Of a stretch of 64,000 nucleotides of DNA, positions 38,804 to 56,747 are shown one piece after another; within the stretch, counting starts at the first letter, position 1; every line of letters begins with the position of its first letter. The position numbers and the translations under genes are program-made. A model generated the notes under the pieces. That model ran no database searches, was not told where the DNA came from, and saw only the letters and a program-made list of their open reading frames with translations. Origin of the DNA: Oligoflexia bacterium (GTDB lineage Bacteria > Bdellovibrionota > UBA1018); assembly GCA_014378465.1 (NCBI GenBank), contig JACMNQ010000021.1:4898-68897 (forward strand), given 5' to 3'.

Positions 38804-38807
38804 GGAT

Positions 38808-39518: not shown

Positions 39519-39683
39519 TTTGAAACTGAGCCGTCCACTCGAAAAACTGTCTCAATCCTGAGTCAGCATTTGCCCACCCGCCTCGGATGGCGTCTTCAGA
39601 GTAATGAATTTTGCAACGCTCGTGAAGCACTTTCTGAAAAGAGGGAGACTTGGCTTGGTCGCTCGCTTGCAAGCTCATTGCTC

Positions 39684-40862
39684 ATGACCTTTTTGATGTC
39701 GCAGAAATCCCCGGTGCATCCTTCTCTCTCAACCCCACCTGCGCCGAAAACGGAATTCAGTGCAACCGAGAGCGCGCTGCTTGAGCTCGGGAAACTCCTT
39801 CAGCACAAGCGTTATCAATTCGTGACCCTCACGCCGGCCTCGCATGCCCGCGTTCTCGCGCGAGACCGCTTCAACCCAACTGATCCGCTTCGTGCAGTCT
39901 TCGGCTGGAATCAACCTTTCAGAAAAAATGAGCTGGATCCTTCAGTTTTTGAACTTCTGCAAAAGGCTGAAGTCCTCGAAACGCTCTCATGGGACCGGTT
40001 CAAGAGCCGCGTTCGCTTCTCGACACTCGGAGATTGCCTCTTTCTGCATTCGGCATTTCCAACGGAGGCTGCCGACAGTGTGTTTTTTGGACCCGACACT
40101 TACCGCTTCACTCGTTTCCTCAAGGAGCAACTGACGAGCCGGCAATCGGAAGGTTCCACTTTCTGGCCTCAGTCCCTGCAACCGTGTCGTCCGAAGCTTC
40201 GCGCGCTGGATCTTGGCTGTGGCGCAGGAGCAGGCGGACTCTTCCTGATCCATTCTTCGCCCTCTTCATCATCTTTTTCTTCCTCACCTTCTTCATCCTC
40301 CTCGTCTTCTTCCTCGTCTCCGGCTCCTCTTGAATTTTCGGAGATGGTGCTCTCCGACGTGAATCCGAAAGCCCTTTCCTACTCGCGAGTCAATTCAGCG
40401 ATCAATGCAGTATCCGACACCCGGCTCCACGCCGCGCCCCACAGTGCGGGAGCGTCCCTCACCTTTCTGGAGAGCGACCTCTATTCGAAGGTGAAAGGAG
40501 AGTTTGACCTGATCCTGGCCAATCCTCCCTTTCTGATCGATGGCGAGAAAAGAAGCTATCGTCACGGGGGCGAAGAAGCGGGTGCGGAACTTTCACTCCA
40601 GATCGTGAGAGGGGCTCTGTCTCGCCTGACTCCGGGAGGAAAGCTCCTGCTTTACACGGCGTCGGCCATTCAAGACGGCAAGGATCCATTCATCAACTCG
40701 GTGTACAAAATCCTGCTGGAGCCCTTTGACAAGTTCGAACTCAGCTATGAAGAAATCGATCCGGACATCTTTGGCGAAGAACTCGGACGTCAGGCGTACT
40801 CGGAAGTGGACCGCCTGGCTGCAGTCGGACTCGTGGTGACAAGACCCAAAGTCTCCGTGTGA
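39684..40862 (+). CDS. Class I SAM-dependent methyltransferase (PrmC/MTS-like)
   Basis: Motifs VFFGPDTYRF, ALDLGCGAG, LSDVN, DLILANPPF and YEEIDPDIFGEEL. ORF-track start is 39570; the true start is uncertain. Confidence 0.85.
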   Translation: MTFLMSQKSPVHPSLSTPPAPKTEFSATESALLELGKLLQHKRYQFVTLTPASHARVLARDRFNPTDPLRAVFGWNQPFRKNELDPSVFELLQKAEVLETLSWDRFKSRVRFSTLGDCLFLHSAFPTEAADSVFFGPDTYRFTRFLKEQLTSRQSEGSTFWPQSLQPCRPKLRALDLGCGAGAGGLFLIHSSPSSSSFSSSPSSSSSSSSSSPAPLEFSEMVLSDVNPKALSYSRVNSAINAVSDTRLHAAPHSAGASLTFLESDLYSKVKGEFDLILANPPFLIDGEKRSYRHGGEEAGAELSLQIVRGALSRLTPGGKLLLYTASAIQDGKDPFINSVYKILLEPFDKFELSYEEIDPDIFGEELGRQAYSEVDRLAAVGLVVTRPKVSV

Positions 40863-41902
40863 CCCGCGAGCCCGCTTTCGCGCGTGGCGTGACTTCTCTC
40901 ACCCGCGGCGTGACTGCGGAGGGCCTCATGATCATGAACTTCGGCCACAAGACAGGCGGCACTTCCGCCGGCGCGCTGAAACTCCGAGAGAGGCGCGTAG
41001 CGGGGGGTGTAGCCCTGCAGCTTCAGAGAGCGCATCAGGCCCGGCAGAAAACTGCCCAGAATCACGGTTTTTCCGACCTGCACCAGGTTGCAGCCAAAAC
41101 TCAGCGCCTCTCGCTCGGACACTTCGATCACTTTTGAAATCCAGGGCGAGCGCACGAGGAGCTCCCAGGATTTCGGCGCAAAAGCTCGTTTACAGGCGAT
41201 TGCAGTTCCGTCCTTGAGGACACTCAGCGCGGTATCGAGATGATACAGAAAAGGATCCACGAGCTTTAGCGGAAGGACGCTGACTCCGATTCGAACTTCG
41301 AGTGCGTGAGCGGACTCGAGAGTAGACCTGAAACCATGACCCATGAAAATGCCGTGGCCAGCGCAGACGACCAGGTCTCCGCCTTCGAGCTTGAACTGAG
41401 GTGGCAGCTCGACCACGGAAAAACCGCGTGAAAGGAGCGCTTTCTTCCGCCCAGCCTGCTCCGCCCTTCTCACCCCATGGAGAGGGTTGGCCAGGACGGC
41501 AAGCTGACTTGCACCTGGCTTCACGGATGAGGCAGGGCCTGCACTTGAAAGCAGAAGCGCATTGTCCTTGGTGAAAACTGAATCATAAGCGCTGCAGACG
41601 AACGGAAGCTCCACCACCTCTGCGCCGGCATCCCGCAAAAGCTGCTTGAAGTTCAGGTGCTGCGTGAACGCGATCTCGAGATCAGAGGACCCGGGCACCA
41701 TATGAGGGTTGATCGTCCACGCGATCTGAAAGTGACACTGCTCGGAGTGCGCGTGAGGCAGGGAGCAGGAAACATCGCTCAAAATGAAAGTGCTCTTTTT
41801 GGCTTCGGCAGATGAGTTTACCTGGGAGGACAAGGCCGATGACCAAGCCGGTGGTGAAGTCATGGAGGATGAAGCCATGGTGGATGAAGTCGCCAGTTGC
41901 AT
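40790..41902 (-). CDS. Amidinotransferase / dimethylarginine dimethylaminohydrolase superfamily enzyme
   Basis: Motifs INPHM, DSVFTKD, LEGGD, YHLDT and the C-terminal nucleophile GGSAAC. Confidence 0.85.
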   Translation of the reverse strand: MQLATSSTMASSSMTSPPAWSSALSSQVNSSAEAKKSTFILSDVSCSLPHAHSEQCHFQIAWTINPHMVPGSSDLEIAFTQHLNFKQLLRDAGAEVVELPFVCSAYDSVFTKDNALLLSSAGPASSVKPGASQLAVLANPLHGVRRAEQAGRKKALLSRGFSVVELPPQFKLEGGDLVVCAGHGIFMGHGFRSTLESAHALEVRIGVSVLPLKLVDPFLYHLDTALSVLKDGTAIACKRAFAPKSWELLVRSPWISKVIEVSEREALSFGCNLVQVGKTVILGSFLPGLMRSLKLQGYTPRYAPLSEFQRAGGSAACLVAEVHDHEALRSHAAGERSHATRESGLAGHTETLGLVTTSPTAARRSTSEYA

Positions 41903-42044
41903 ATTAGGTCATCACTAAGCACAAGGAAGGCCAAAAAGGGCCCTGTCTCAGAATCGTCTGAGAAAAAAACGCACAAATCCCCGTGCGCACGCTCGTGCTC
42001 CAATTCAAAGAGGGAGGCATACCTCCTGCATTCGTGAGTGCGAT

Positions 42045-43004
42045 ATGATTGACTCGAGCAGACCCGAACACCTCTCCAGGACTTTGCAACTTGCGTGGGC
42101 CCTGCAAAACAGGAAGCGCCTGAGTCCCAATCTCAACGCGCTTGAGTCCGCCCCCTCTTATCTCGACAGCCTGCTTGACCTGAAATGGAAAGCCGACCTC
42201 ACCGCTGAAGCGGAATTTGCCCGCATCGAAGGAGAATGGATCGAGTCTGAGCGCCGCGAAATCGCGCCCTGGGCCAATCAAGCACCTCGCACGCCGGACG
42301 ATTTCATCCAGTGGTTTGAAGACCTCAAGCAGACGGGTCCGGGCCAGCAGGATCCCCTTTTCCCGTGGCTTGCAAAAGAGGCCAGCTTTGAGGAAATGCG
42401 TTGGTTTTTGAAACAGGAAGTGGGCGGCGAGGCCGGCTTTGACGACTTGGTCGCTTTGACTCAGGTCAAGCTGCCCAATCAGGCCAAACTCGAACTTGCC
42501 CGAAACTACTGGGATGAGATGGGCCGCGGGAGTGAGCGCGGCATGCATGGACCGATGCTCCATCACCTCGCGGTGGAGCTCGAGCTTCACCCCGTGCCTG
42601 AAGCCGAGATCGTGACTGAGAGTCTGGCCCTGGGCAATCTCATGGTCGGCATGGCCTTTCACAAACGCTATACTTATCAGTCCATCGGAGCGCTCGGGGT
42701 GATCGAGCTCACGGCGCCGGGACGAGCCTCGTGTGTTTACGAGGGGTTAAAGCGTCTGGACGTGAGTTCCACGGGCCGCCAGTACTACCTGCTCCACTCA
42801 ACTCTGGATGTGAAACATTCAGAAGCCTGGAACCGCGAAGTGCTCCGCCCACTGATCTCGGCCAGCCCGAAAGTTGCGCCGCTCATTGCCGAAGGCGCAC
42901 TTCTTCGGCTGAAAGCCGGCAGTTTCTGCTTCCGGCGTTACCGGCGGGAGCTCGATCTACTGAATCTCAACTCCAAAATCGCAAGTCTGCGCTTGACGGC
43001 TTAA
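42045..43004 (+). CDS. Iron-containing redox enzyme (heme-oxygenase-like diiron oxidase, HDO)
   Basis: QEVGGEAGFDDLVA, YWDEMGRG..H, LGVIEL and H-x3-D-x2-H (HSTLDVKH), matching the diiron ligand pattern. Confidence 0.85.
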   Translation: MIDSSRPEHLSRTLQLAWALQNRKRLSPNLNALESAPSYLDSLLDLKWKADLTAEAEFARIEGEWIESERREIAPWANQAPRTPDDFIQWFEDLKQTGPGQQDPLFPWLAKEASFEEMRWFLKQEVGGEAGFDDLVALTQVKLPNQAKLELARNYWDEMGRGSERGMHGPMLHHLAVELELHPVPEAEIVTESLALGNLMVGMAFHKRYTYQSIGALGVIELTAPGRASCVYEGLKRLDVSSTGRQYYLLHSTLDVKHSEAWNREVLRPLISASPKVAPLIAEGALLRLKAGSFCFRRYRRELDLLNLNSKIASLRLTA

Positions 43005-43182
43005 CGCACCTAGTCTATCTCTCCGTTCCATAGGATTTGTTTAAAAGTTCCCTCCAGCCCCTGCTGGCCCGGGACTGGAATGAAACGATGCGAAGCATCG
43101 AAACGGGGTGAGTACGGGAATGAAAAATCCACGTGCGTACCCGGTTTTCTTTTGAGATCAAGTAAACGCACACTGTCGCTTT

Positions 43183-43737
43183 TTGGGCCTGATTGAAAAG
43201 CTGGAGATTGAACCTCTCATGAATTCTTTTCTGACCTCACTGACCCCTGTCCAACTCAGACCTCGTTTGCCCATTCAAATTCCCAGGTTTTCGGAACTGT
43301 TTGGCAAACGATCGTTTCATCTGCCCCGTTTCGCGATGCCCAAACCCGTGGACCGGGTGAAAGCCATGATCGACACTTTTGAAGATGAAGCCAACGGGAT
43401 CTCGCTGGACATCCGAAACCTGGAGCAGCGCCTCTTCGACCGCGGGGTCTTCATCCCTTACGATTACGCGATCACCAAGCGCTACGAATCCAATGACGAC
43501 TACTCTCCTCTCGTGAAAGCACTCGAAATTTCCTGGGACAATTACCGTGGCAAGGGCTTTCGCCTGCTCCTGAGAGAAGAAAAGTACACGAATCTCAAGG
43601 GCGCGCCTCGCATTCGCCTCGTGACTCCGCTGGTGGATTGCACTTCAGTCAAAAAAGTTCAGGCCTATTACCACCTGGATAAATTTCTGACGGGCCTTGC
43701 GAAGAACACGCACTCGAGTTCGTCTTTGGTTTCCTGA
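43183..43737 (+). CDS. Hypothetical protein
   Basis: 184-aa ORF with protein-like composition. An alternative ATG lies at 43219. No family recognised. Confidence 0.6.
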   Translation: MGLIEKLEIEPLMNSFLTSLTPVQLRPRLPIQIPRFSELFGKRSFHLPRFAMPKPVDRVKAMIDTFEDEANGISLDIRNLEQRLFDRGVFIPYDYAITKRYESNDDYSPLVKALEISWDNYRGKGFRLLLREEKYTNLKGAPRIRLVTPLVDCTSVKKVQAYYHLDKFLTGLAKNTHSSSSLVS

Positions 43738-43856
43738 CCTTTTTCTGCTTCATTCGCACGATTTGTCCTCAGCACTGCGAAATGGACTGCTCACTCAGGG
43801 ACCTTTAGGGGGTACCTGAGTGAAAGAAACCCGAAAGGGTTTCTCAGTCCCAGCTG

Positions 43857-43896
43857 AAAAAGAAAGCCGAATGGAAGGGGTTCCATTCGGCTTTCT
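43857..43896 (-). terminator. Rho-independent terminator
   Basis: Perfect 16-bp stem agaaagccgaatggaa/ttccattcggctttct with an A tract on the left, giving a U tract on the minus strand. Confidence 0.75.
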
Positions 43897-44035
43897 CTAT
43901 TTTGGAGCTCGCATCGGCGCCGGTTTCGGGGTTTCATCTTTTGCCGGCCTCCGGGTTTTACGTTACGTCGAAGCAGGCTTTGCAGTGGTGCGCAGGATAT
44001 ACGAAACTAAAGCGACTGCCTGCGCGCGAGATGAC

Positions 44036-44212
44036 TCAAGCCGCTTTCTTCTTGCGGCAGGACCCTTTGGCTCCGGGCTGGGTACCGGGCACGCGCACGA
44101 ACCCAGACCAGCAGGAGGTCTTTTTCGCTTTACTCTTCGGGGTCCCACGCGCTTGCGCGGGTTTCCGTTTTTTGGCCGCCGAGACTTTGGACGATTTTCT
44201 TGCAGTGGGCAT
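44036..44212 (-). CDS. Small (58 aa) Lys/Arg-rich protein with CW...RVPGT..GAKGSC motif, below the ORF-track cut-off
   Basis: Translated by hand: MPTARKSSKVSAAKKRKPAQARGTPKSKAKKTSCWSGFVRVPGTQPGAKGSCRKKKAA*. The ATG overlaps the upstream stop (TGATG) and a terminator follows. Confidence 0.7.
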   Translation of the reverse strand: MPTARKSSKVSAAKKRKPAQARGTPKSKAKKTSCWSGFVRVPGTQPGAKGSCRKKKAA

Positions 44213-44451
44213 CAGACGATCCTTTTCACTTTGAGGGTTCGGTGATCTTCGGCAGGTGAAACGATGAAGAAGCTCTGGCCGCGCTTGTAGATTTCGGCTT
44301 CATTCAGACCGGTTTGCGCAGTCTGGGTGAGCCGTAAAGCCGTGTGCTCCAGAGCTTCGGAAAGTTCGGGGTCGAGTTCATGATCGCGATTTGCGAGCGA
44401 ATCGGGATGAGCGGAGCGATTTCGGGGATTCATGCACTGATTACGGGGCAA
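44212..44451 (-). CDS. Small hypothetical protein
   Basis: 79-aa ORF (or 73 aa from an internal ATG). Its stop is coupled to the next ATG. Confidence 0.5.
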   Translation of the reverse strand: MPRNQCMNPRNRSAHPDSLANRDHELDPELSEALEHTALRLTQTAQTGLNEAEIYKRGQSFFIVSPAEDHRTLKVKRIV

Positions 44452-44541
44452 AAAGCGAGCCGTTTGATCGTGAATTGCAGACGAAATTCGAAGCGAGGGG
44501 CTGAGAGTCCTGGACCGTGGCTTGAAGTGATGAGCAAAAAG

Positions 44542-45000
44542 TCATGACGCCTTCTCGTACCGGGCTTTTCGCTTGGCAACGTACTGTTGATGATGCGCCT
44601 CGGCCCGGTAGAACGGCACCGCTGGCACGACCGAGGTCCACTGCCGGGTGGGCTGCCGCGCTCTCGAGCGGATCGCCAAACGCTCCTGATCTGGCGTATG
44701 AAAGAAGATCACGGATCGGTATTGATAACTCGAATCGTGATCCGATCGGTGAGTCGCGCGCGGGTCATGGATCTCCCAGAATTTCTCGAGGAGTTCTTCG
44801 TAACTGACGACTTTTGGATCGAAGAGGACTTCGACGGTCTCGGCATGCCCGGTATTTCCGGTGCAAACCTCTGAATAGCGCGGGTTGCTCGTCGTTCCTC
44901 CCGAATAGCCCACGGCAGTTTCGACCACGCCCTTCAGATTTCGAAACGAGTCTTCGACTCCCCAAAAACAGCCGGCTCCCAAAGTAAATTTTTCGGTCAT
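44542..45000 (-). CDS. msrA: Peptide methionine sulfoxide reductase MsrA
   Basis: Motifs GAGCFWGVE, VGYSGG..NPRYSEVCTG.TGHAE, QYRSVIF and FYRAEAHHQQY. ATG at 45000. Confidence 0.93.
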   Translation of the reverse strand: MTEKFTLGAGCFWGVEDSFRNLKGVVETAVGYSGGTTSNPRYSEVCTGNTGHAETVEVLFDPKVVSYEELLEKFWEIHDPRATHRSDHDSSYQYRSVIFFHTPDQERLAIRSRARQPTRQWTSVVPAVPFYRAEAHHQQYVAKRKARYEKAS

Positions 45001-45568
45001 GACAGCCTCCCTCCTTCGCCTGTGGTGCAATCCGGAGACCCTTTGCCGCCGTATCATTCTCGATATTCACGTCATGGTCACGATTAGCCCGGCTGATGCC
45101 GCGATCGAAACAATCGATTGGCCTCATCACTCCTGCCATGAAAGATCAGGCTCACGACGCGAGGCCGCTTCCAGCAGTTGTCGGGCGCTCTCGTGGAACT
45201 TGGGCGTGACGAGGTTTCGTTCTTCCCGGTTCACTCAGCAACCACGGAGATCGTATTCAAAAGGCCCTCGAGTCCAGCCTCGCCCGCGTTTTCTCCTCTC
45301 GAACTGGAGATCACGACACTGAATGCCGAGCACGAACCCAAAATCGACAGGTACTCGGCTTAGTGCAGCCGCTTTCCTGAAATTCAGGTCAAGCCGATGA
45401 AATGCGGCAAGGATCAGAAACTCTGCTACGGCGACTGCAGGCCGATCGACCGGGGATGTGGCCATCACCGCTGAAAACGCAGAGCGGCAATTGCGCCAGA
45501 CTGCTTGGAGAACACCTCTCGAGACTCCCCTCGCCTTATCTCAGCTCGTCTGATAGCTTGAACTCACT

Positions 45569-45926
45569 GGGGACGTCACGGCTTCGACGGGAGTCTTGAT
45601 GCCTTGGATGCATGTCGTGGTTCGTCGAAGGCCACGTAAAAATCGACGAAATGTAATTGGCAACGATTACGCAATGGCTGCTTAATAGTTAACTCTATTT
45701 AAGTACCACGGTCTACCCGAAGGCTCCCATCGTTCGGAATAGTCCGTCATTGAATGGGATAGGTTCCTGGTTCTCGCAGATGGCCAGGGAGCGAAACTAA
45801 AGTCTGCGGAGGGTGAGAACAGGTTGTCTGTAGTCGTTTCTCACTTAATCCAAACTACAGAATACGCATGTAGATTCTAAGGTTGATGTCTTTCGGACGA
45901 GGGTTCGACTCCCTCCGTCTCCACCA
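45569..45926 (+). ncRNA. ssrA: tmRNA
   Basis: The 5' end GGGGACGtcacggcTTCGAC pairs with the 3' CGTCTCC-A-CCA (G3-U70). T-arm GAGGG-TTCGACT-CCCTC. Internal tag ORF ends in Ala-Ala. Length 358 nt. Confidence 0.95.
45659..45685 (+). other. tmRNA proteolysis tag reading frame (A)GNDYAMAA*
   Basis: GGC AAC GAT TAC GCA ATG GCT GCT TAA, followed by TAG. Confidence 0.85.
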
Positions 45927-45931
45927 ATATC

Positions 45932-45971
45932 AAAAAAGGGTCCCCTTCTTCACGGAAGGGGGCCCTTTTTT
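45932..45971 (+). terminator. ssrA terminator
   Basis: Hairpin aaaaaagggtccccttc-ttcacg-gaagggggccctttttt. Confidence 0.85.
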
Positions 45972-46077
45972 GATTTTAATTGGGGAGCGAAGGATCGTCG
46001 AGAGCTCCGTGTTCCGCTTCGCGGCCACTCGCTCACGCGTCACATGAAAACTCTTTCAGAGTTTTTCTGCGCTCGCG

Positions 46078-46094
46078 TCCCTCCGTCTCCACCA
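46078..46094 (+). repeat. ssrA 3'-end copy 1 (att-like)
   Basis: tccctccgtctccacca, 17/17 identical to 45910-45926. Followed by the hairpin ggggttgaaga/tcttcagcccc and a T tract. Confidence 0.9.
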
Positions 46095-46398
46095 AATTGG
46101 AGGGGTTGAAGAGTAAAATCTTCAGCCCCTTTCTTTTTCAATAATAAAAACAAACTAGCTCACAGGGGTTCTTTTAGGTCACTTAGCCATTCCACTCCAA
46201 ATCACGCAAAATAACCCCACTTGTTGTGCGTTGCAGTAATCGGCTGTAGTAAGCCACCCGGTTACTACGTTCATTTCTAAGTATGTAGATTTTAAACCGG
46301 CTAAGTGTTGGAATGGCCGCTATGAGACCCCGTAGCCCTCTCCTGGTTTAGATCAACCAGCGGAGGCCACCCACGCGGTCCGCGCTAAAAGAAATCAG

Positions 46399-46459
46399 GT
46401 GTCGTCGTCTGTCTGGGAATGACTCCCCGGAAAGTGTCGTCGCTTATGTGGGAATGACC
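46399..46459 (+). repeat. Two bipartite direct repeats GTGTCGTCG-N6-TGGGAATGAC, period 35 bp
   Basis: Copies start at 46399 and 46434; 19/19 conserved positions are identical. Confidence 0.7.
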
Positions 46460-46498
46460 CTAGCTAAACTGCCGTCGAGTTGGTGGGACGGAAAACTT

Positions 46499-49400
46499 TT
46501 AATGCCGGAGTAAAAGTGGAAGCTCAATAATGAACTTCGTTCCCTTCCCTTCTTCACTCTCTACCCGAATATTTCCCTGATGGCCGGTCACAATCTGTTT
46601 GACGATGTAGAGGCCAAGCCCAAGACCACTGACGTGGCGCGAAACATTCGCGCGCTCAAAGCGCTCAAATATTTTTTCCTGACACTCTTTGAGAATGCCG
46701 GGACCAAAATCCTGAACAACGAGTACAGCGGTCGCACCCTCAACCGAGACCCGAATTTGAATCGAATGGCCGGGTGCATACTTAATGGCGTTAGAGATCA
46801 AATTGACGATGACCTGCTCGATACGCGCTGGGTCCCAGCGAACGACTAGGTTCGGGGTGACTTCAACTTGAACCGAACACTCTGCCCGCTCAAGCTGTTC
46901 GGAAAAGTGGAGGACCGCCTCCCGGATAACTGCTTCCACGTTCATCGTCTGGAAACTGAAGGCCAGAATTCCAGCCTGAATTTGAGCGACATCGAGTAAG
47001 TTTTCTACCAAACCGGCCAAGCGATCGGTCGCCTCTATCGACTTGTCAATCAGCTTTTCAGAGGAGGAAGCTTGGCCGAGTTCTGTTTGGATTCGTTTTT
47101 TTGCCAGCTGGAGTTGTAAAATCAATGCAGTAATAGGGTTCTTAAACTCATGAGACGCGATCGCCATGAACTCATCACGAGAGTGAAGTGCTTCTTGGAG
47201 CTTGGATGTCAGTCTTTCCATCTCCCTGCGCGCCGTCACCTGCTCGGTCACTTCATAACCGAAGATCAGGACCGCTTCGGTTTCTCCGGCTAAGTCTTTC
47301 ATCGGTTCAACTACAAAGGAGAAGTACCCTTTTCTCTCTTGGCGTCCGAGACGGTCGAGTGTCGCTTCATATTCGTTTGCGACGAAAGACTGTCCCGTAC
47401 GATAAACCTTCTCGAAAATAAGATGGGTTTCTTCTTCCATCTCTGGCAGAGCTTCGCGTAACGACTTGCCTATGATGGAATCTTCTTTACCGATCAGCGC
47501 AAGGTATCGAGAATTGGCAATATCGAAGGTGAGTTTTTCGCCCTTGAGTAAAGCTACGGCAGCAGGCGCTTGCATAAAAACGTTGTAAATGTTTTCTCGC
47601 TGAAAATTTGACTCCGCACGAAGCCTTCCAATTTCAAGATGGGTCATTACGCGGGCTATGAGTTCTTTGGCAGAAAATGGTTTTATAAGATAATCATCAG
47701 CGCCCGTTTCCAAGCCTTCAATGCGTGACTCTTCGCCTGCTCGGGCCGAGAGTAGGATACAAGGTATTCCTTTTGTTTTTGGATTCTCCCTGAGTCGTTT
47801 GACTAACTCCAAGCCGTCCATCTTGGGCATCATGACATCACTGAGAATAAGATCAGGCGCATGATGGTTAGCCGAAATCAGGGCAGCTTCTCCATCCCCT
47901 ACCGCCTCGATATCGCAATGAGGTTGGAGCAGGTTCTTCACATAGCCGCGCATGTCGGAATTATCATCGGCGATGAGGATTCTCGCACGTTTCTTACCTT
48001 TGATAAACGCATCGAAACTCACTGGACTCGTCTGCGAGTCCGGGAGCCACCTCAGCGCTTCCTCTACAAACTCGGCACCCTGGGCTTCAATGGCCTCCCC
48101 CTCTTTGGCGCTCCCTAAGAGGTCAGCGGGTAAATGTTCTTTGCCGAGTGGAATTTCAACCGTGAACTCGGACCCCGTCCCTAACTCGCTTCGTACTGAG
48201 TTCGTGCCCCCATGAAGCTTTACGAGCTCCTGAGTCAGCGCAAGCCCGATGCCCGAGCCCTCATGGGTTCGCCCTTGTGCCCCTTCTACTCGGTGAAAGC
48301 GTTCAAAGAGGTGGGGAATTTCGGTAGCGGGAACGCCGACGCCCGTGTCTCGAACACTGAGGCGGGCCCATCCATTGGCTTGAGTCAACCTGACTTCGAT
48401 CTCCCCGTGGAGGGTAAACTTAAAGGCATTTGAAAGAAGATTAAGAACGACCTTTTCCCACATTTCACGGTCGACATAGACCGATTCGTGTAGACCAGAA
48501 GTTTCGACGATCAGCTTGAGACCCGCTTTTTCTATAGCTGCGCGAAACATTCCCGAAAGTTCGACGGTCAGTTTTGAAAGATCTGTCGGCCGGAATACCG
48601 CTTTCATGCGGCCGGCCTCAATGCGGGAAAAATCCAGGAGCGAATTGACTAACTTGAGAAGCCTTCGTGCGTTCCGGTAGGCAAGCTCATCTCGCACTCT
48701 ATGCTCCGGCCCCAGGGAAAGATTGGGATGAGCCAAGTTGTCTTCCAGCGGCCCGAGCATCAGCGTAAGCGGCGTACGAAACTCGTGCGAAACATTTGAA
48801 AAAAATGCAGTTTTAGCACGATCAATCTCCGCTAAAGCCTCGGCCCTTTTTTTTTCTTGCGCGTAGGCCCGCACGTTGGTGAACGCGGTGTTGACCGCAT
48901 TTCCCAAGGACTCATAGAAACTCAGGTAGTCGGCGTCGAAGGCACGTCGCGCACTGACGCCCGCTACCAGGAAGCCAAAAGGGTGATCAACGCCCGAAAT
49001 TAAAATGGGTAGAATAACGGCTTCCCGGAGCGCTTCGGGATAGGGCTCGCAAATCAGCGGACCCCATAAGCGCTCGAGGTCACTTACGAACTTCATTTTC
49101 TTGGCACGAGCTACTTCCGCGAGTGGCCAGGTTTGCTGACTCTCATTTTCAAGGTCAATCGAATCGGGCGTACTTGTGGTTCCACTCGGCAGTCCGACAC
49201 TTTTAATCAGGCGGGCGCTTTTTCCAGATTCATCCAGTTGGTAAATGAGGAAGAACGGCAGGTCGAGATTACTGGCCCCGTGGGTCTTCTCGGCAAAATC
49301 GACGATTTCAGTCTCAGTCTGGGCTTTGGCGATTTGGGTGGAAAAGTCACGAACGGCTTGAGTCCGCCTTGAACTCAGCATCCGGTTGGTGGTTTCGGTA

Positions 49401-49894
49401 ATCGGGTGGAAAAGTCCGCCGACTTCCCCCGACTCGTCACGAATCGGACTGAAGGAGAACGTCATGAACGCTTCTTCCAAATAGCCATCCCGATCGAGGA
49501 ACATGCGCTGGTTCTCGATGTAGGAACCTTTGCCAGACCAGGCCCGTGCAAAAATTTCGCCTACTACGGGCAGCGCCGTAGCCCAGCAATCATTGAATCT
49601 CTGACCCATGGCCTGTGGGTGTTTGGCACCGCAGATCGGTCGATAGCTGTCGTTGTAGATCTGAACGTTCTCCGGTCCCCAAGTGATGAGGATAGGAAAG
49701 GTCGAAGAGAGGCACAAGCTTACCGTGGTACGCAAGCTCTGGGGCCACAGTTCGACCGGCCCGAGAGGAGTCTTGCCCCAATCCAGAGAGCGGATCAGCG
49801 CCCCCATTTCGCCGCCCCCCGAAAGAGCGTCGTACTTAGCTGAATCAGGGTCTCTCGAGGCTGGGACGGCGCTAGTAATTTCCTTAATTTTCAT
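46499..49894 (-). CDS. Hybrid sensor histidine kinase (PAS/GAF-HisKA-HATPase-REC-PAS-HisKA-HATPase)
   Basis: Two H-boxes (VSHEFRTPL, ASHEFKNPI), two ATPase domains (NLLSNAFKF/DTGVG/GSGIGL and NLISNAIKY/DFGPG/GLGLGL) and a receiver domain (IADDN..SDVMMPKMDG..KPF). Confidence 0.93.
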   Translation of the reverse strand: MKIKEITSAVPASRDPDSAKYDALSGGGEMGALIRSLDWGKTPLGPVELWPQSLRTTVSLCLSSTFPILITWGPENVQIYNDSYRPICGAKHPQAMGQRFNDCWATALPVVGEIFARAWSGKGSYIENQRMFLDRDGYLEEAFMTFSFSPIRDESGEVGGLFHPITETTNRMLSSRRTQAVRDFSTQIAKAQTETEIVDFAEKTHGASNLDLPFFLIYQLDESGKSARLIKSVGLPSGTTSTPDSIDLENESQQTWPLAEVARAKKMKFVSDLERLWGPLICEPYPEALREAVILPILISGVDHPFGFLVAGVSARRAFDADYLSFYESLGNAVNTAFTNVRAYAQEKKRAEALAEIDRAKTAFFSNVSHEFRTPLTLMLGPLEDNLAHPNLSLGPEHRVRDELAYRNARRLLKLVNSLLDFSRIEAGRMKAVFRPTDLSKLTVELSGMFRAAIEKAGLKLIVETSGLHESVYVDREMWEKVVLNLLSNAFKFTLHGEIEVRLTQANGWARLSVRDTGVGVPATEIPHLFERFHRVEGAQGRTHEGSGIGLALTQELVKLHGGTNSVRSELGTGSEFTVEIPLGKEHLPADLLGSAKEGEAIEAQGAEFVEEALRWLPDSQTSPVSFDAFIKGKKRARILIADDNSDMRGYVKNLLQPHCDIEAVGDGEAALISANHHAPDLILSDVMMPKMDGLELVKRLRENPKTKGIPCILLSARAGEESRIEGLETGADDYLIKPFSAKELIARVMTHLEIGRLRAESNFQRENIYNVFMQAPAAVALLKGEKLTFDIANSRYLALIGKEDSIIGKSLREALPEMEEETHLIFEKVYRTGQSFVANEYEATLDRLGRQERKGYFSFVVEPMKDLAGETEAVLIFGYEVTEQVTARREMERLTSKLQEALHSRDEFMAIASHEFKNPITALILQLQLAKKRIQTELGQASSSEKLIDKSIEATDRLAGLVENLLDVAQIQAGILAFSFQTMNVEAVIREAVLHFSEQLERAECSVQVEVTPNLVVRWDPARIEQVIVNLISNAIKYAPGHSIQIRVSVEGATAVLVVQDFGPGILKECQEKIFERFERANVSRHVSGLGLGLYIVKQIVTGHQGNIRVESEEGKGTKFIIELPLLLRH

Positions 49895-50161
49895 ATTTAA
49901 AATATGGTCGTCAGCGGCTCGCGAGTTTTAGACCCAAGTGGAGCCTGTAAACACTTAGGGCAAAGAAAGCGAGGTTTAAATACCGAACCTATCAAGTCTT
50001 CTATTGCAGCGCCGTATCCGGGTTGCGCCAGAATGGGACTTTTATCTGATGTCTTCGTCAAAGACTACTCATAGATCGGCAGGAAGCGCCTCGCCTTCTC
50101 GTTTTGACCAAGTCTCAGCTTCTCTTGGATTGGGAATCGCGTTGCCTGGAAAAGATTCCCA

Positions 50162-50235
50162 TGGCCGATTTCACGCGAGCTGACCCCTACGTTTTCACTC
50201 AACTGACCCCTGCTCTTTTCACTTGAGTTGACCCC
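50162..50235 (+). mobile_element. Orphan IS21-type terminal repeat
   Basis: TGGCCGATTtCAcgcGAGCTGACCC plus two internal TTCACT..A.TGACCC repeats, similar to the element end at 50488. Confidence 0.7.
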
Positions 50236-50487
50236 AGGAAGATTTCAAGAAAGATGTCGCATTTATTTTTTAGGCAGCCTGAACTCTTAACTTTTGATCA
50301 TCTGATTTGATTTCTTTTCGAGGGTTGAGCCTGACTTCCGTGATCATCGACCAGTTGCGCGTCTGCCTGGACCAGCGAGAGGGATTGGAGAGCTTTGCAG
50401 CCTGATAGATTTCGTGCCGACGTCTCAAGATTTCAGTATCTTTGCCGTTATGGCGTGACTCGGGCGTTACAAAACGGAATCCACTAT
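50236..50487 (-). pseudogene. IS3-family transposase C-terminal remnant with its right end
   Basis: SGFRFVTPESRHNG..EILRRRHEIYQAAK..NPSRWS..TRNWS...LNP is an IS3-type C-terminus. It is cut off at the IS21 left end. Confidence 0.7.
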
Positions 50488-50676
50488 TGGCCGATTGCAG
50501 TTGAGCTGACCCGGGCAATTGCAATGAATTGACCCACCCCGATTTCACTTGAGTTGACCCAGGCGATTTCACTGAACTGACCCAGCCAATATCAGTGAAA
50601 TGACCCACTAGTTTTGGTCAGGTTTTCGGGTGCTTTTGAAGCTAGTGTCGATCATCTCAAAGGGGACCCCTGAAAG

Positions 50677-52155
50677 ATGATTGGCAGCAGAAAGAGCACC
50701 GCAGTGAGAAGTGAGATTTTTAGATTAAAACACGCAGGCCACGGGCACCGAAAGATTGCCCAGATCCTAGGGATTTCAAGAAATACGGTCAAAGGGATCC
50801 TGAAGTCCGGAGATGGGCCCGGTCGTGTGGAGAAGCCCTTGCCCGAGACCCGGGTCTGGAGTGATGAGGTGGCCTGGGATGAGGTCCGCAGTGAGCTCAC
50901 CAAGCGCTACGTGACGATCAAGCAGCTGGCGGCTGAATACGCCCCTGAGGGCGTTGATTACATCCGCTTCTGGAGGGAGCTCAGGCGACGCACTCCGGTC
51001 GACGTCATCAGTCAGGTGCGCATCAAGATGCAGCACGAGCCCGGAAGCCGCTTTGAGGGAGATTACTGTGACGGTATTGTGATCACGGACCGGAAAACCG
51101 GGAGAACGAAAAAGACGCAGCTCTTTGCAACCGCGAGTTCATTTAATGATTACAAATACGCCGAATTCACCATGGCCCAGACCAAATGCGAATTCATCGC
51201 GTCCCAAGACCGGATGTTTCATTTCTTTGGCGGGCTGCCAGTCTATTACGTGATCGACAATCTGAAGAGTGGCGTCAGCCGGGCGCACCGCTATGATCCG
51301 GACCTGAATCCTTCATACTGTGATTACGCCAATCACATGGGATTTTCCGTACTGCCGGCAAGACCCGTCACCCCAAGAGACAAGCCCGCCATTGAAGGCG
51401 CAATTGGCGTCACCCAGAGACAATTTTATTCGGAAGTGAGAAACCGGGTATTCTATTCAGTCACCGAACTCAATGACTGTCTTCGGAAATACATCACGCG
51501 CCTGAACGCTTCAGAAATGAAGGACTACGGGACAACCAGAGCCGCGCGCTTCGAAACTGAAAGGCCGCTACTGAAAGCACTTCCTCAAGAAGCCTACGAG
51601 ATGAGTGAGTACCGAAGCTCAAAAGTTCATCCGGATTGCCATATCCAGGTGGACCGAAATTTTTACTCAGTCCCGTACCGCTTCATCTCTCAAAGCATGC
51701 GCGTGAAGCTCTCGGTCAGAACCATTGAGATCTATAGCGAGGACCACGAGCTTGTCGCCATTCATGCGAGAAAATTAGGAAAACGAAACTTCTCCACCCA
51801 CGACGCCCACTATCCGGAACAAAAAATCGCCGCGGCAAGATTTGATATCTTGGCACTCAAAAAAGAGGCTGCCCGGATCGGACCCGAGATGGATGCCGTG
51901 AATGGTGAACTCCTGGCGGGAGTGTCGCCGCTTCGGTACCTGAGGCGCGCACAGGGAATCTTGCGGCTGTCAAAAACGCTACCGTCAAGTGCGCTTGAGT
52001 ACGGCTGCAAGCAGGCAAGGCTCTTTGGTCGCCTGAGGCTTCAGTACATCACTGACTGCGCGACCAGGTTCCATAGAAATGGGACCAGGCCCGTGCTGGT
52101 TAGGGAAGCCCCCGCTCGCGAGCGCTCTCAGATCTATCTCCATGAACAACCCTGA
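50677..52155 (+). CDS. istA: IS21 transposase IstA
   Basis: N-terminal HTH (KIAQILGISRNTVK), HEPG..EGDY, YVIDNLKSGV, DKPAIEG and DRNFYSVPY. Confidence 0.92.
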   Translation: MIGSRKSTAVRSEIFRLKHAGHGHRKIAQILGISRNTVKGILKSGDGPGRVEKPLPETRVWSDEVAWDEVRSELTKRYVTIKQLAAEYAPEGVDYIRFWRELRRRTPVDVISQVRIKMQHEPGSRFEGDYCDGIVITDRKTGRTKKTQLFATASSFNDYKYAEFTMAQTKCEFIASQDRMFHFFGGLPVYYVIDNLKSGVSRAHRYDPDLNPSYCDYANHMGFSVLPARPVTPRDKPAIEGAIGVTQRQFYSEVRNRVFYSVTELNDCLRKYITRLNASEMKDYGTTRAARFETERPLLKALPQEAYEMSEYRSSKVHPDCHIQVDRNFYSVPYRFISQSMRVKLSVRTIEIYSEDHELVAIHARKLGKRNFSTHDAHYPEQKIAAARFDILALKKEAARIGPEMDAVNGELLAGVSPLRYLRRAQGILRLSKTLPSSALEYGCKQARLFGRLRLQYITDCATRFHRNGTRPVLVREAPARERSQIYLHEQP

Positions 52156-52197
52156 ATCCGAAAACCCTGAAATGACCCTACGAAAGAGAAGTAAAAA

Positions 52198-52943
52198 ATG
52201 TCATCATCTCCATCATCATCAATCCCCATGATCCAGAGCATGCGGCAGATATCCCATGAACTGAGACTCTTTGGAGTCCACGAAGGGCTCGAGCGCAGGT
52301 CTGAGGAATCCCTTCACTCAGGGCTCAGCCCACTTGAGTACCTGAGACTCGTGCTTGAAGACGAGCGACTCCATCGCCGCCAGAGAACGGCAAAAATGCT
52401 TCAAACCCGGGCCAAGTTCCGATCTGGCGCCGAGCTTGAGGACTGGGACCACGCAGTCGATCGGGGGCTCAGTAAACCGCAGTTCAAGGATCTGGCAAGC
52501 CTGGGGTTTAAAACGTGATTATTGTCGGACCCACAGGGACCGGGAAGACACATCTGGCGACCGCTCTCGGAAAAAAACTCTGTCGTGAAAGTGTAGGAGT
52601 ACAGTTCTTCTCGCTCAATCTTTTTCTGGAGGAGTGTCAGGCCGAGAAATCCTCGGGTCGTTATCTCAACTTCATCAAACGCACAAAAAACGTCGCAGTT
52701 TTGATCTTAGATGACTTCGGACTTCGGAACTACTCGCACGATGAAGCAGTGATTATCGTCGACCTGCTTGAAGAAAGATATTAACACGGGTCTGTCATCA
52801 TCACGTCCAGGGTTGACCCAAAGGGCTGGCACAAACTCTTTGAAGATCCAGTGATTGCCGAGGCCGCAATCGACCGGATGAAAAATCCCAGCATGCAAAT
52901 CATTCTCAAAGGGAGTTCCTACCGAGAGCGCCTGAAAAAATAG
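52198..52943 (+). pseudogene. istB: IS21 helper ATPase IstB, disrupted
   Basis: Frameshift near 52510 just before Walker A (GPTGTGKT). In-frame TAA at 52782-52784 after LLEERY, then HGSVIITS...KGSSYR continues to TAG at 52943. Confidence 0.88.
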
Positions 52944-53079
52944 GATTGAACTGACAAGAATAACGCAGTAGCAGATCCAGCAAATAACAGCCGCATCATC
53001 GGCACCCATCCCCCTGGGTCAGTTGAGTGAAATAGGGTGGGTCAACTCAACTGCAATCGGCCACCCGAAGCGCGAGGAG

Positions 53080-53105
53080 TCGACTCCCACGGTCGGTCGC
53101 CACCA
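53080..53105 (+). repeat. ssrA 3'-end copy 2 (degenerate)
   Basis: tcgactcccacggtcggtcgccacca: three substitutions plus a ggtc duplication relative to the native end. Followed by the hairpin aaaaaggccgatt..aatcggcccttttg. Confidence 0.65.
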
Positions 53106-53205
53106 AGATCAAAAAGGCCGATTGAGCACTCAGTGTTTAATCGGCCCTTTTGATTTTATGCAATCGATATCGAAACTCGCAAGCCCCGCCCGATCAAATT
53201 TGGTC

Positions 53206-53342
53206 GAACAGTAATGCCAGAACGTGATCAGCGTTTTGCTCCTTCAGCAGGGAGCCGAGAGGGAGACTGAGGGGGCACCAGCTATGCTAGTCGCGAAGGA
53301 GCCCAGCCTGCAGCCGAAGCGGGATAGCGCTGAGAGCGAAAG
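53206..53342 (+). repeat. Structured repeat type A, copy 1
   Basis: Collinear with 53618-53756 (GAACAGTAA.GCCA.AACG...GCGTTTTGCTCC...ACTGAG..GG.ACCAGCTA.GCT.GTCGCGAAGGAGCCC..CCTGCAGCCGA.GCG.GA.AGCGC.GAGAGCG). Confidence 0.85.
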
Positions 53343-53344
53343 GC

Positions 53345-53363
53345 ACTCCCTCCGTCTCCACCA
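53345..53363 (+). repeat. ssrA 3'-end copy 3
   Basis: actccctccgtctccacca, 19/19 identical to 45908-45926. Followed by the hairpin aaaaatccca..tgggattttt. Confidence 0.9.
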
Positions 53364-53548
53364 TAAAAATCCCAGGTGACACGTAAGTGTTAGTTGGGAT
53401 TTTTATTTGTGCGGACTTGAGGGAGGCAAACCGTGGAGGAGCGACCTCGCAGACTCCGAGGGAGTCTGCGAGGAGAGTCGCGCAGGACGCGCGAATCAGC
53501 GACGACGCCGCGACGGAGGTTTTTCCTGGAAGGCAAAAGCGCGAGGAG

Positions 53549-53570
53549 TCGACTGCCTCCGTCTCCACCA
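53549..53570 (+). repeat. ssrA 3'-end copy 4
   Basis: tcgactgcctccgtctccacca, 21/22 identical to 45905-45926. Preceded by a type B element containing a 13-bp perfect hairpin at 53445-53473. Confidence 0.9.
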
Positions 53571-53617
53571 AAAATTAAAAGGACTGCTCCGAAAGAAGCT
53601 GCCTTTTTTATTTTGTG

Positions 53618-53756
53618 GAACAGTAACGCCAAAACGCAGTCGGCGTTTTGCTCCTCCCAGGCTAGACTCGAAAGGCGGACTGAGAGGGTACCAGCTACGC
53701 TGGTCGCGAAGGAGCCCGTCCTGCAGCCGAGGCGCGACAGCGCCGAGAGCGGAAAG
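53618..53756 (+). repeat. Structured repeat type A, copy 2
   Basis: See copy 1. Contains stems AAAACGC/GCGTTTT, ACCAGC/GCTGGT and GGCGC/GCGCC. Confidence 0.85.
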
Positions 53757-53803
53757 ATCAACGCTCAGGCACATGCCATTGCGGGAGGTCAATTTCACAG
53801 ACA

Positions 53804-55603
53804 CTAAGCAGCCTTTTTGTGCCTATAGCCTTGATTGAGGTGATTTCTAAAAAGCTCGTTCATCCACCCGTGGCTCTTGGCCGCATCATATGCTTTGGGA
53901 TCTCGCTTCATAAAATCACGACGATTCCTGCAAAATCGAACAATCTCCTGACATTTCTCAAACGTCCAGTAAGCATTCGGTGCGGCCTTTGGAAGGTAGC
54001 CTTCATTTGGATGCCTTCTGAAAAGATCATTGAGCCAGCCCCTGCGATGGGCAGCCGCGAAAGCACCGGGCTGGTGTAGTTCTAGTTCTTTTCTTGTTTT
54101 CACTTTCGAAACGAACTCAGAGACTCGCTCAAAGGTCCAAAAACCTGGCGGTATACTCTTGAAGCCTTGGTTTGGATGCATGGCAAACAGGTGATCAAGC
54201 AGTCTTCTCCGGACAGCCCCTTCGTAAGCGCCGGCATGCTTCATCTTGAATTCGCTCCTGGTCGCGCATTGCTTTACCAGGGCGCTGAGTTGGTCATAGT
54301 CCCATTCCGCATTCTTCCGGTACCCATGGCCTGCATGGTTTTCAAAGAGTTCGTCAAGCCAGTGATTTTTAACGGCTGCCGCGTGGGCCCCCGGGAACCG
54401 CTCCTTGAATTCCTTTCGATCCGTACACTGCTTGGCGGCAGCCTGGCATGCCGCCAAGCTCCAAGTGCCGTTTTTTTTCTTGATCAAGCCTTGATGAGGA
54501 TGATCTTTGAATATCCGATCCAGAAGCTTCTGATTTGCAGCCGCTTGATACGCATTTGGATGTTTTTTTAAGAACTCGTTGCGACTCTCGCAAACCATGG
54601 CCAGCTCGTGCAATTTATCTTCAGTCCAAAACCCAGTGTCCACCCGAAGTTTTCCTTGATTCGGCAGCGACGAGAATATTTCCTCCAGCCATCCGTTATG
54701 AATTGCAGAATTGTAACCGCCTCCGAAATTCTTTTGGAATGCTCGCCTGGAGCCGCATTTCAGAGCAACTCTCCTACATTCTTCCTTGTTCCAACGATCA
54801 ATACCCTTTCCAACTGCACCACCGCCATCCGCATTTGCCATAATCCAGCCATCGGTGCGGAATTTTTTGATCTGATCTTTTTCAAGGGCTGCGGCGCAGC
54901 TTTCATCTAGTGGTCCCGATATTCGTGTCAACACTGCCCCATCTTCGATCAACTTCCGAACGACAGCCGATCCCGACCTGCGATGTTCCTCGAATCTCTC
55001 TTCTGGATCGTGCGAAAGCCCTACGTAAATGCGCTTTTCACTCGCGAGCGCGATCGTGTAGACATAGCGTGTATAGAGACTCCCCAGCGAACGCATATGC
55101 GCTGAAAAATCATCAATCCAGCCGTTTCTCAGGGCACTTGAATAGGCGCTGGAGTATTTCTTTCTGAACTCGTTTTTTGACTTGCACTCAAGTGCAGCCT
55201 TGCGGCAATTCTCTTTATCCTGCCAGTGACCCCGTGCAACTCTTCCCTCTTCAAAGCCACGATTGGGATGGTCTTCAAATAATAGATCGATCACGCCATT
55301 TTGGTGCGCACGGCTATAGGCATTTGGATTTGTTTTTGCCATCTGGCCACGGGTAGCAAATCCAGCCGCAATCCTCTTGAGGTCTGAGATTGACTCTTCC
55401 TTTGAAGTAAACTTCGCTATTCGGTTGCCCCCGTTGGTGTGGTTGCAGAAGATTTCCTGAAGCCAACCTGCACGGTAGGCGGCTCTAAAGGCCTGGTAGT
55501 GATCGGTTCGCATCTGCTTTTGGTCAACACAAGCATTTGCGATTGTTTGACATTTCTCCTTCGTCCATGCCGGCAGCTGAGAACTTTTTTTATGCGAGGC
55601 CAT
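53804..55603 (-). CDS. GIY-YIG nuclease embedded in nine ~55-aa helical tandem repeats
   Basis: YVY-x10-IYVG..DPEERFEEH...LEKDQI..ANADGGG nuclease core. Repeat consensus W(T/S)xExC..A..C..RxEF...xAY..A...GWLDELF..HxNxG, with 3 copies before and 6 after the nuclease. Confidence 0.8.
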   Translation of the reverse strand: MASHKKSSQLPAWTKEKCQTIANACVDQKQMRTDHYQAFRAAYRAGWLQEIFCNHTNGGNRIAKFTSKEESISDLKRIAAGFATRGQMAKTNPNAYSRAHQNGVIDLLFEDHPNRGFEEGRVARGHWQDKENCRKAALECKSKNEFRKKYSSAYSSALRNGWIDDFSAHMRSLGSLYTRYVYTIALASEKRIYVGLSHDPEERFEEHRRSGSAVVRKLIEDGAVLTRISGPLDESCAAALEKDQIKKFRTDGWIMANADGGGAVGKGIDRWNKEECRRVALKCGSRRAFQKNFGGGYNSAIHNGWLEEIFSSLPNQGKLRVDTGFWTEDKLHELAMVCESRNEFLKKHPNAYQAAANQKLLDRIFKDHPHQGLIKKKNGTWSLAACQAAAKQCTDRKEFKERFPGAHAAAVKNHWLDELFENHAGHGYRKNAEWDYDQLSALVKQCATRSEFKMKHAGAYEGAVRRRLLDHLFAMHPNQGFKSIPPGFWTFERVSEFVSKVKTRKELELHQPGAFAAAHRRGWLNDLFRRHPNEGYLPKAAPNAYWTFEKCQEIVRFCRNRRDFMKRDPKAYDAAKSHGWMNELFRNHLNQGYRHKKAA

Positions 55604-55784
55604 AGCGATGTATCGGAATGGGTGCGCGGAAAATCAAGCGGCTTAATAATCATTGAGTCGCTTGAGGTCTCTCATGCAATGTAGCTAATTGACGATCTAC
55701 GTCTTCAAGGACATACACCCGTTCTGAACAACTCTCTCTTTCTCCTCAGAAGCTGCCACCGAACCACTCCCTACGGAAAATGGT

Positions 55785-56747
55785 TTACGCCGCCTCCAGC
55801 TTAATCTTCAGATTCATCATCCATTCAGTCATGAGCCTGATCACTTGCTCATGATTGGGACCTCCGGGCACTACAGCGTAAACTTCGACTTCAGGCAACC
55901 CCGGAACATCGGGTGCGAGTAAGTCTCTGCCGTCAAAAGCTACGCCCAGATACTCGGCAGCGATAAAGCCCGCGCCCCGGATAGGCGCCACTCCAAAGCT
56001 CCGAACCTTTCCTTTCCCGTCCCATTTGAGCGTATCCGTCCGGTCCTCATGAGGCACGGAGCGAAAAAGCTGAACTGCGGCTCGAGTTGCGATCGAAGCG
56101 CCGTCCTGCCTAGCAAGTCCTGCGACGAGGTACTTGAAAGCGATCTTTGCTTCCCCCAGCTCCAACGCTCTCTCAGAGAGCATCGCCGCGTGGGTAGCGC
56201 TTTCTGCAGCGCCCTCAGCACTCAATTCTGACAACGTCATTTTGGCGACTCGCCCGTTCAGTGACAACAACTCTTGAACTCTGAGTGCAGGGTTGAATGA
56301 TTCTGTATCCGGCGTCCACTCGTGCCTGAGGATCCACGAACAGATCCCGATCAAGGCTTCACTATCAAGGGGCAGCGCCAGAGGTACATTCGAGTACAGG
56401 TCCTGTGAACGAATCTGTTTTGAAGCGGCCCAGGCCAGGTCCATCTCGGCCTTTCTTCTGCGCGCCACAAGGCCCAAAATCTCAAAGAAGGCCGCACCTC
56501 GGTAGCCGCCCTTTCTGAATTCTCGTGCTTCGGTCACAGCCCCCACCCATTCGCCCTCTGTGATCTTCCTGATCAGGGATTTGGGAGAACGAATATCGGA
56601 GGTTGTAACTGGAGTCACAAGAGACACAGGCGCGCAGGCCTCGGGTAAGAGTTTTAACTTCATTCTCAAAGTTTGCTGCCCAACGGTGACATCCCGGGAC
56701 CCGCTCTCATGGCCGACGAAGATCCGATGCCTGACCTTATCTGACAA
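55785..56747 (-). CDS. Hypothetical protein
   Basis: 320-aa ORF divergent from the DUF2779 gene. No motif recognised. Confidence 0.6.
   Translation of the reverse strand: MSDKVRHRIFVGHESGSRDVTVGQQTLRMKLKLLPEACAPVSLVTPVTTSDIRSPKSLIRKITEGEWVGAVTEAREFRKGGYRGAAFFEILGLVARRRKAEMDLAWAASKQIRSQDLYSNVPLALPLDSEALIGICSWILRHEWTPDTESFNPALRVQELLSLNGRVAKMTLSELSAEGAAESATHAAMLSERALELGEAKIAFKYLVAGLARQDGASIATRAAVQLFRSVPHEDRTDTLKWDGKGKVRSFGVAPIRGAGFIAAEYLGVAFDGRDLLAPDVPGLPEVEVYAVVPGGPNHEQVIRLMTEWMMNLKIKLEAA

Follow-up and report, generated by a model that had tools for sequence, protein, structure and literature searches.

The stretch of DNA analysed here (the window) comprises 64,000 nucleotides (nt) of contig JACMNQ010000021.1 from an Oligoflexia bacterium of the Bdellovibrionota, and carries at 53804..55603 on the minus strand a complete coding sequence for a repeat-flanked GIY-YIG nuclease (P0001). 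The open reading frame (ORF) begins with ATG, runs for 599 amino acids (aa) with zero internal stops and matches PHROG 20046 (phrog_20046, E 2.6e-61), a family filed as of unknown function. Its product is laid out as three repeats, a GIY-YIG core and six further repeats. A nuclease placed between nine tandem units of about 55 aa (3 + 6) was the central claim of a preliminary description made from the DNA letters and predicted translations, and it was borne out by Pfam, by gapless alignment of the units and by a repeat hidden Markov model (HMM) derived from homologues; equally correct was the statement that the gene is free-standing, having no host intron or intein. Here, we addressed what the flanking modules may be, how the family to which the protein belongs is distributed, and which mode of life fits the gene best.

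The catalytic core occupies 54818..55072 on the minus strand (residues ~178-262), as delimited by Pfam, the family alignment, an AlphaFold2 model and Foldseek, and is followed by a Gly-rich linker (residues 258-268). The Pfam GIY-YIG match covers residues 180-250 with E 7.4e-5, its 23.4 bits being barely above the gathering score of 22.6. Alignment of 33 family members left Y182, Y193, G195, R203, E241 and N257 as the only invariant columns, with H207 nearly invariant; the counterparts of the GIY and YIG motifs are here YVY (containing Y182) and Y193-V-G195. The six invariant residues are what we take to be the GIY-YIG catalytic set known from I-TevI and UvrC. The AlphaFold2 model of the entire protein has a mean predicted local distance difference test score (pLDDT) of 83.8, with 93-97 in the core blocks, and a predicted template modelling score (pTM) of 0.35; compared by Foldseek, it matches the I-TevI catalytic domain (1ln0_A) with probability 0.99 and a template modelling score of 0.66 over 90 columns, and the N-terminal domain of UvrC (1yd5) with probability 0.97. 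Both the active-site residues and a fold superposable on I-TevI and UvrC thus place the protein in the GIY-YIG superfamily, and its I-TevI-like core looks intact and catalytically competent as far as alignment and model can tell. Pfam reported neither NUMOD nor helix-turn-helix (HTH) domain in the 599-aa protein, and no other appended DNA-binding domain was found.

GIY-YIG homing endonucleases are textbook modular nucleases, for which, to our knowledge, few DNA-binding modules have been described, namely NUMODs, a zinc finger and HTH. According to PMC3664794, enzymes such as I-TevI and I-BmoI consist of a monomeric nuclease domain that flexible linkers connect to a DNA-binding region of modular build, and the window's protein resembles them in catalytic fold, catalytic residues and this general construction. 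It departs from them in that their nuclease is N-terminal and is followed by NUMOD, zinc-finger or HTH modules (in the I-TevI-type plan, by a C-terminal NUMOD/HTH part), whereas here the nuclease is internal, between 3 + 6 predicted four-helix modules; nor is the gene intron-encoded.

Boundaries of the repeats were set by anchoring on the motif [AG][YFH]xxA, upon which the nine units align gap-free. All lie on the minus strand, and in the order of translation they are R1 at 55412..55573 (residues 11-64; independent E-value 7.9e-15), R2 at 55241..55402 (residues 68-121; 6.8e-10), which is the most degenerate copy and has no leading Trp, and R3 at 55067..55228 (residues 126-179; 2.2e-22), which continues straight into the first strand of the nuclease; beyond the core there follow R4 at 54638..54799 (residues 269-322; 2.1e-19), R5 at 54473..54634 (residues 324-377; 3.2e-17), R6 at 54308..54469 (residues 379-432; 2.2e-19), R7 at 54149..54310 (residues 432-485; 1.5e-13), R8 at 53984..54145 (residues 487-540; 7.2e-16) and R9 at 53813..53974 (residues 544-597; 1.7e-20). 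These values come from an HMM built from the repeats of homologues alone, P0001 being left out, which recovers 9/9 units with independent E from 7e-10 to 2e-22; 200 shuffles of the protein gave altogether 5 weak matches. Mean pairwise identity among the nine copies amounts to 28% (range 20-41%), and since no repeat is found between them at the DNA level they are old and diverged.

The HMM and a survey of copy number and variable positions over 182 family members (1,409 repeats), both of which the preliminary description had proposed, allowed a consensus to be drawn, and the scaffold W..C...R.EF...AY..A...GWL..LF..H.N.G given there agrees with it. Conserved positions are W3, T4, E6, C8, A12, C/Y15, T/S17, R/K18, E20, F21, A28 and Y29, followed by A32, K/R34, N35, G36, W37, L38, D39 and E40; they recur with helical periodicity and make up the core of the unit. 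The most variable positions are 30 (3.77 bits), 33, 22, 9 and 26. Positions 26-34 correspond to the start and one face of the third helix beside the conserved basic residue 34; the variable positions 26, 30 and 33 are adjoined by the conserved T/S17, R/K18, K/R34 and N35. The whole protein is basic, with an isoelectric point (pI) of 9.6; 8/9 repeats have pI >= 8.8, and the nuclease core is neutral. Two subtypes of the unit can be told apart. In the commoner, sister subtype (e.g. P0004 and P0020) the tail reads 'DEIC.HM', C8, C42 and H44 are kept, and there is often a Cys at position 15 (C/Y15) or a second one at 41; judged from this set of residues it might bind zinc. The window's subtype has Phe at 42, a variable position 44 and the tail 'LF.NHPNQG[YF]'.

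In the AlphaFold2 model each repeat forms a set of four short helices, about 10, 7, 9 and 4-6 residues long, at pLDDT ~90, and the inter-repeat linkers fall below 50; R9 modelled alone retains pLDDT 87.8 with pTM 0.66. By prediction, then, each repeat is a four-helix bead that folds independently, with flexible linkers in between, and the array forms no rigid solenoid. Full-length Foldseek matches to TPR and HEAT proteins were dismissed, their root-mean-square deviations of 20-50 Å making them meaningless. The single-repeat model gave 0 Foldseek matches in the Protein Data Bank (PDB) at E <= 10, the sensitivity of the program being low for a 54-aa domain; the repeat profile found nothing below E 0.75 among PDB sequences, and 48 repeats scanned singly against Pfam pointed to no consistent family. 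Literature searches on GIY-YIG proteins with repeats, NUMOD or helical repeats returned no description of the module, nor is it mentioned in the 2006 phylogenomic survey of the GIY-YIG superfamily. One published candidate, a motif of the Paulinella group 2 proteins occurring also in bacterial GIY-YIG, helicase and NUMOD proteins (PMC7729196), was set aside, its supplementary alignment lacking the W..E.C / AY..A...GWLD signature; by its sequence that motif is apparently NUMOD1-like.

The family is large. An exhaustive phmmer search over 1.84 billion cluster representatives returned 4,895 proteins at E <= 1e-3, of which 643 reach E <= 1e-30, the closest identity of the window's protein to any member found being at most ~40%. 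Among the 182 surveyed members, 168 have one nuclease between repeat arrays, which count 0-9 units N-terminally (mode 3), 0-11 C-terminally (mode 3-4) and 4-21 altogether (median 8), so the 3-N-6 layout of the window's copy is ordinary for its family. Species-representative genomes scanned with a degenerate DNA pattern for F..AY..A...GWLDE yielded 52 loci, 49 of them with ORFs of the repeat-nuclease type, in hosts including Prevotella/Segatella and other Bacteroidales, Polynucleobacter, Vibrio, Ruegeria, Synechococcus and Halobacteriovoraceae. PHROG 20046 and the NCBI name 'GIY-YIG nuclease family protein', applied to members from Vibrio, Prevotella and others, denote direct family membership, and both are labels with no function, target or repeat description attached.

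The same module is found fused to an HNH nuclease (P0037), to a superfamily 2 (SF2)/ResIII helicase (P0014), to NUMOD1 (P0011) and to an I-HmuI NUMOD-like domain (P0009). It is mainly because all fusion partners are DNA enzymes or DNA-binding modules of homing endonucleases that we infer DNA binding for the repeat; the modular DNA reader of the preliminary description is thereby upheld as far as it concerns a portable module joined to DNA enzymes (GIY-YIG, HNH, SF2 helicase, NUMOD1, NUMOD-like). The same data bear on another view, in which the repeats bind RNA or protein or serve as scaffold or regulator and targeting comes from elsewhere. Binding of RNA or of proteins is common among helical repeat proteins, no likeness to a known DNA-binding fold was found, and 14/182 surveyed members are arrays with no nuclease at all, which is what such a role would allow; the nature of the fusion partners and the strongly basic character of the arrays speak against it, as does the dependence of GIY-YIG homing enzymes on an appended DNA-binding domain (PMC3664794), no other such domain being present here. 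On balance we regard a role apart from DNA reading as very unlikely, and the modules are probably the DNA-reading arms of the enzyme.

If the modules read DNA, the manner of reading deserves consideration, because the preliminary description had suggested a recognition code of the kind used by transcription activator-like effectors (TALEs) or zinc fingers. TALE repeats are nearly identical except for two residues and build a superhelix. The window's array shares with them tandem helical repeats joined to a nuclease (as in engineered TALE nucleases), whereas its units are ~28% identical, vary diffusely over all exposed positions and are linked flexibly. In orthologue pairs of 42-63% identity each of the exposed repeat positions shows substitution levels of 55-78%, and positions 30/33 harbour 235 distinct residue pairs among the 1,409 repeats, the top ten making up 24%. 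A TALE-like code was rejected on these grounds, together with a TALE-like superhelical solenoid, disfavoured by the pTM of 0.35 and by linkers with pLDDT < 50 (in prediction only), beads being modelled instead. The likeness to zinc fingers fails as chemistry, since Phe at 42 and the variable position 44 leave the window's repeats with no zinc ligand set. As logic it is possible: like C2H2 zinc-finger arrays, the modelled units are small independent beads of variable copy number with a conserved linker (HPNQG[YF] in the window's subtype) and variation on one helix face, the differences being that the module is a predicted four-helix unit of 55 aa, with no zinc ligand set in the window's copies, and that no code is known for it. 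A far-reaching extension would see in the 55-aa module a DNA-binding unit of a kind not described before, which reads sequence and amounts to a 'fifth NUMOD'; its beads would each recognise a few bp via helix-3 residues 26/27, 30, 33 and 34, and arrays of 4-21 beads to either side of a GIY-YIG core would spell long targets. We consider this unlikely; if true, arrays could be re-assorted or engineered in the way zinc fingers are.

Evidence on the mode of spread comes from phages. According to tblastn, the family is present in Rhizobium phages and in KVP40-like Vibrio phages, the latter having it at one to six places in each genome. A 2.4-kb cassette of Vibrio phage Va3 (L004 3885-6261) consists of two genes in tandem with the layouts RRRNRRR and RRNRRR (R, repeat; N, nuclease) and is missing from phage ValKK3, the flanks being 85-97% identical; neither repeat nor nuclease ORF occurs at the corresponding loci of ValKK3 and KVP40, and other relatives have no such genes there either. 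An intergenic motif of 40-45 bp, single in ValKK3 (L006 1987-2031), exists in Va3 in three copies (L004 3840-3884, 5133-5171 and 6262-6306), one before each nuclease gene and one after the cassette. Presence and absence at the same intergenic site of near-identical genomes is thereby documented, for phage homologues only. The left flank gene of this pair is 85% identical as against 95-97% further out, reminiscent of co-conversion beside a homing site. In Rhizobium phage RHph_TM3_3_9 two family copies flank the primase gene; another member lies on a phage-like contig with an HNH_3/NUMOD4 gene, and one more on a virus-like contig. Further members were found in a Bacteroidota conjugative transposon (with TraO, TraQ, integrase and AbiH) and adjoining an integrase in Vibrio, a T4-type terminase and a recombinase in Synechococcus and a T5orf172 nuclease in Ferrimonas, and one family protein recurs at >= 90% identity in several Vibrio species and Photobacterium. 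With this distribution the phage homologues resemble free-standing homing endonuclease genes, and other passengers of mobile DNA, in behaviour. A close parallel is offered by the Seg and Mob enzymes of phage T4: the Va3/ValKK3 and Rhizobium phage homologues are likewise free-standing between phage genes, variable between relatives and often multicopy, the differences being in the DNA-binding region and in the location of the window's copy, which resides in an island of a bacterial chromosome and not in a phage.

The window's gene is single copy in its genome, was not found in a same-genus genome nor in 39/40 relatives, and is a compositional outlier, with a G+C content at third codon positions of 51.5% compared with ~68% in core genes. 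It lies downstream of the transfer-messenger RNA (tmRNA) gene at 45569-45926. The 3' end of the tmRNA is present four times in exact or near-exact form (45910-45926, 46078-46094, 53347-53363 and 53554-53570; sequence TCCCTCCGTCTCCACCA), each copy being followed by a terminator-like hairpin, and the last copy is 233 bp away from the nuclease gene. These copies look like what a series of several integrations at ssrA has left behind, no integrase being present any more. A longer, degenerate copy is located at 53068-53105, and direct repeats of ~145 nt ('type A', 53198-53341 and 53610-53754, 83-84% identical) come each after a tmRNA 3'-end copy, for which reason they may be sequence associated with the attachment sites and not a structured RNA standing by itself; Rfam, applied over 45400-56000, recognised the tmRNA itself only. 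The tmRNA and transfer RNAs (tRNAs) were also considered as homing target of the family as a whole and discarded, any tRNA being present within the 8-kb stretch in just 6/52 chromosomal loci (L012-L063).

Close to the gene there is an IS21-family insertion sequence (~50488-53063) with multi-repeat terminal inverted repeats, in which istA (50677-52155) is intact and istB is broken into two or more frames (52198-52518 and 52515-52784), which makes the element probably inactive. Such surroundings raise the question of whether the nuclease gene is itself an inactive relic, a cassette stranded with no target or function and decaying in the island. The broken IS21 with its split istB, the tmRNA attachment-site remnants devoid of integrase, the lack of an obvious Shine-Dalgarno sequence before the ATG and the degeneracy of R2 would all suit it; the open frame of 599 codons, the catalytic residues and the nine repeat scaffolds, all intact, do not, and decay has in our estimate only a slim chance of being the right description.

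The region downstream of the tmRNA gene is variable and further holds an MvaI/BcnI-like nuclease, a DUF2779 nuclease and an Mre11/Rad50-like pair. In this company the gene could be a stand-alone nuclease of defence or of warfare between elements, whose array recognises a sequence of the invader and whose GIY-YIG core destroys it. Neighbours of some homologues are AbiH, a KAP NTPase or a Bil-like ubiquitin system, and cases are known of homing endonucleases being drawn into conflicts of this sort, phage ICP1 using a nuclease derived from one against PLE, an element resembling phage-inducible chromosomal islands (PMC8263062). A case within the Bdellovibrionota is a metagenome-assembled genome of Halobacteriovoraceae (L051 1927-4415), where the family member is directly beside JAB/ThiF (E1-like) and multiubiquitin/Prok-E2 proteins, neighbours which by their domain content form a Bil-like ubiquitin-type defence module. 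For the window's protein, on the other hand, PADLOC gave no match, no conserved partner or immunity gene exists, and nothing was seen linking the neighbouring nucleases to it; many members inhabit genomes of lytic phages, in copies that are multiple and variable, as selfish genes do and host defence does not, and a long multi-module footprint suits one specific target and not broad immunity. The 320-aa ORF upstream, with no Pfam or PADLOC match, was rejected as a partner, being absent from 25 relatives and not found beside homologues (70+ loci). Defence we therefore judge to be improbable, and the 'defence-like island' of the preliminary description is better described as a variable region by the tmRNA gene with unrelated nuclease modules. 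The variability extends to the other side of the tmRNA: in two genomes of the same family (G006 and G010) the tmRNA gene comes directly after the homologue of ORF 35819-37315, and the window has about 8 kb between the two (37315-45569), including msrA and an 'orphan biosynthetic cluster' at 38808-43004, which hence also belongs to variable DNA. On the contig past the window, the Mre11/Rad50-like pair is followed by an ADP-ribosylglycohydrolase and a 429-aa ORF with no Pfam match (L011 2642-3460 and 3467-4753), and then by GNAT and HD_4 proteins, with no further tmRNA 3'-end copy.

Taken together, these data favour, with a probability we put at roughly 0.65, a horizontally acquired, free-standing homing-type GIY-YIG endonuclease with modular DNA-binding arrays, member of a large unnamed family (PHROG 20046) and either an active or a stranded selfish gene. 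According to this scheme the basic four-helix modules, as sequence-reading units, would align the protein with a long asymmetric target so that it extends to either side of the cut site, and the GIY-YIG domain, tethered between the arms and having a single active site, would nick the two strands in turn like I-TevI and I-BmoI. Judging from the homologues, the family would be a selfish gene cassette that spreads in phages, conjugative transposons and islands; the Bdellovibrionota copy would have been acquired horizontally into the variable region beside the tmRNA gene, and its product would act alone, not within a multi-gene defence system.

Several observations weigh against such an assignment. 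The repeat has no detectable solved or Pfam relative and cannot be ascribed to a known DNA-binding fold, and its binding to DNA is something we infer from context. The signs of homing are the presence and absence of distant phage homologues, 25-30% identical to the window's protein; the free-standing homing enzyme proposed in the preliminary description thus finds in these homologues the polymorphism typical of such genes, but for the window's gene itself no syntenic empty site was found in relatives, synteny ending at the tmRNA gene. No gene-less allele was found in the source metagenome either, where a single contig with no alternative joint was seen, and among public runs one glacier metagenome, of DNA, is alone in containing the sequence. 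Finally, the restriction-like and Mre11/Rad50-like nucleases of the neighbourhood leave room for a role in defence.

What appears to be new is the helical module, which belongs to no Pfam family, is without a solved relative and is not described in the literature searched. Judged by their sequences, thousands of proteins of phages, conjugative elements and bacterial islands share a plan different from that of the described homing endonucleases, the catalytic domain being set between two variable arrays of modules. If the module reads DNA, it would explain how the family finds long targets, would provide a new building block for engineered nucleases and would mark a widespread class of selfish genes shaping the genomes of phages and islands. 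For the Bdellovibrionota genome considered here, the gene would be one more horizontally acquired passenger at the tmRNA hotspot.

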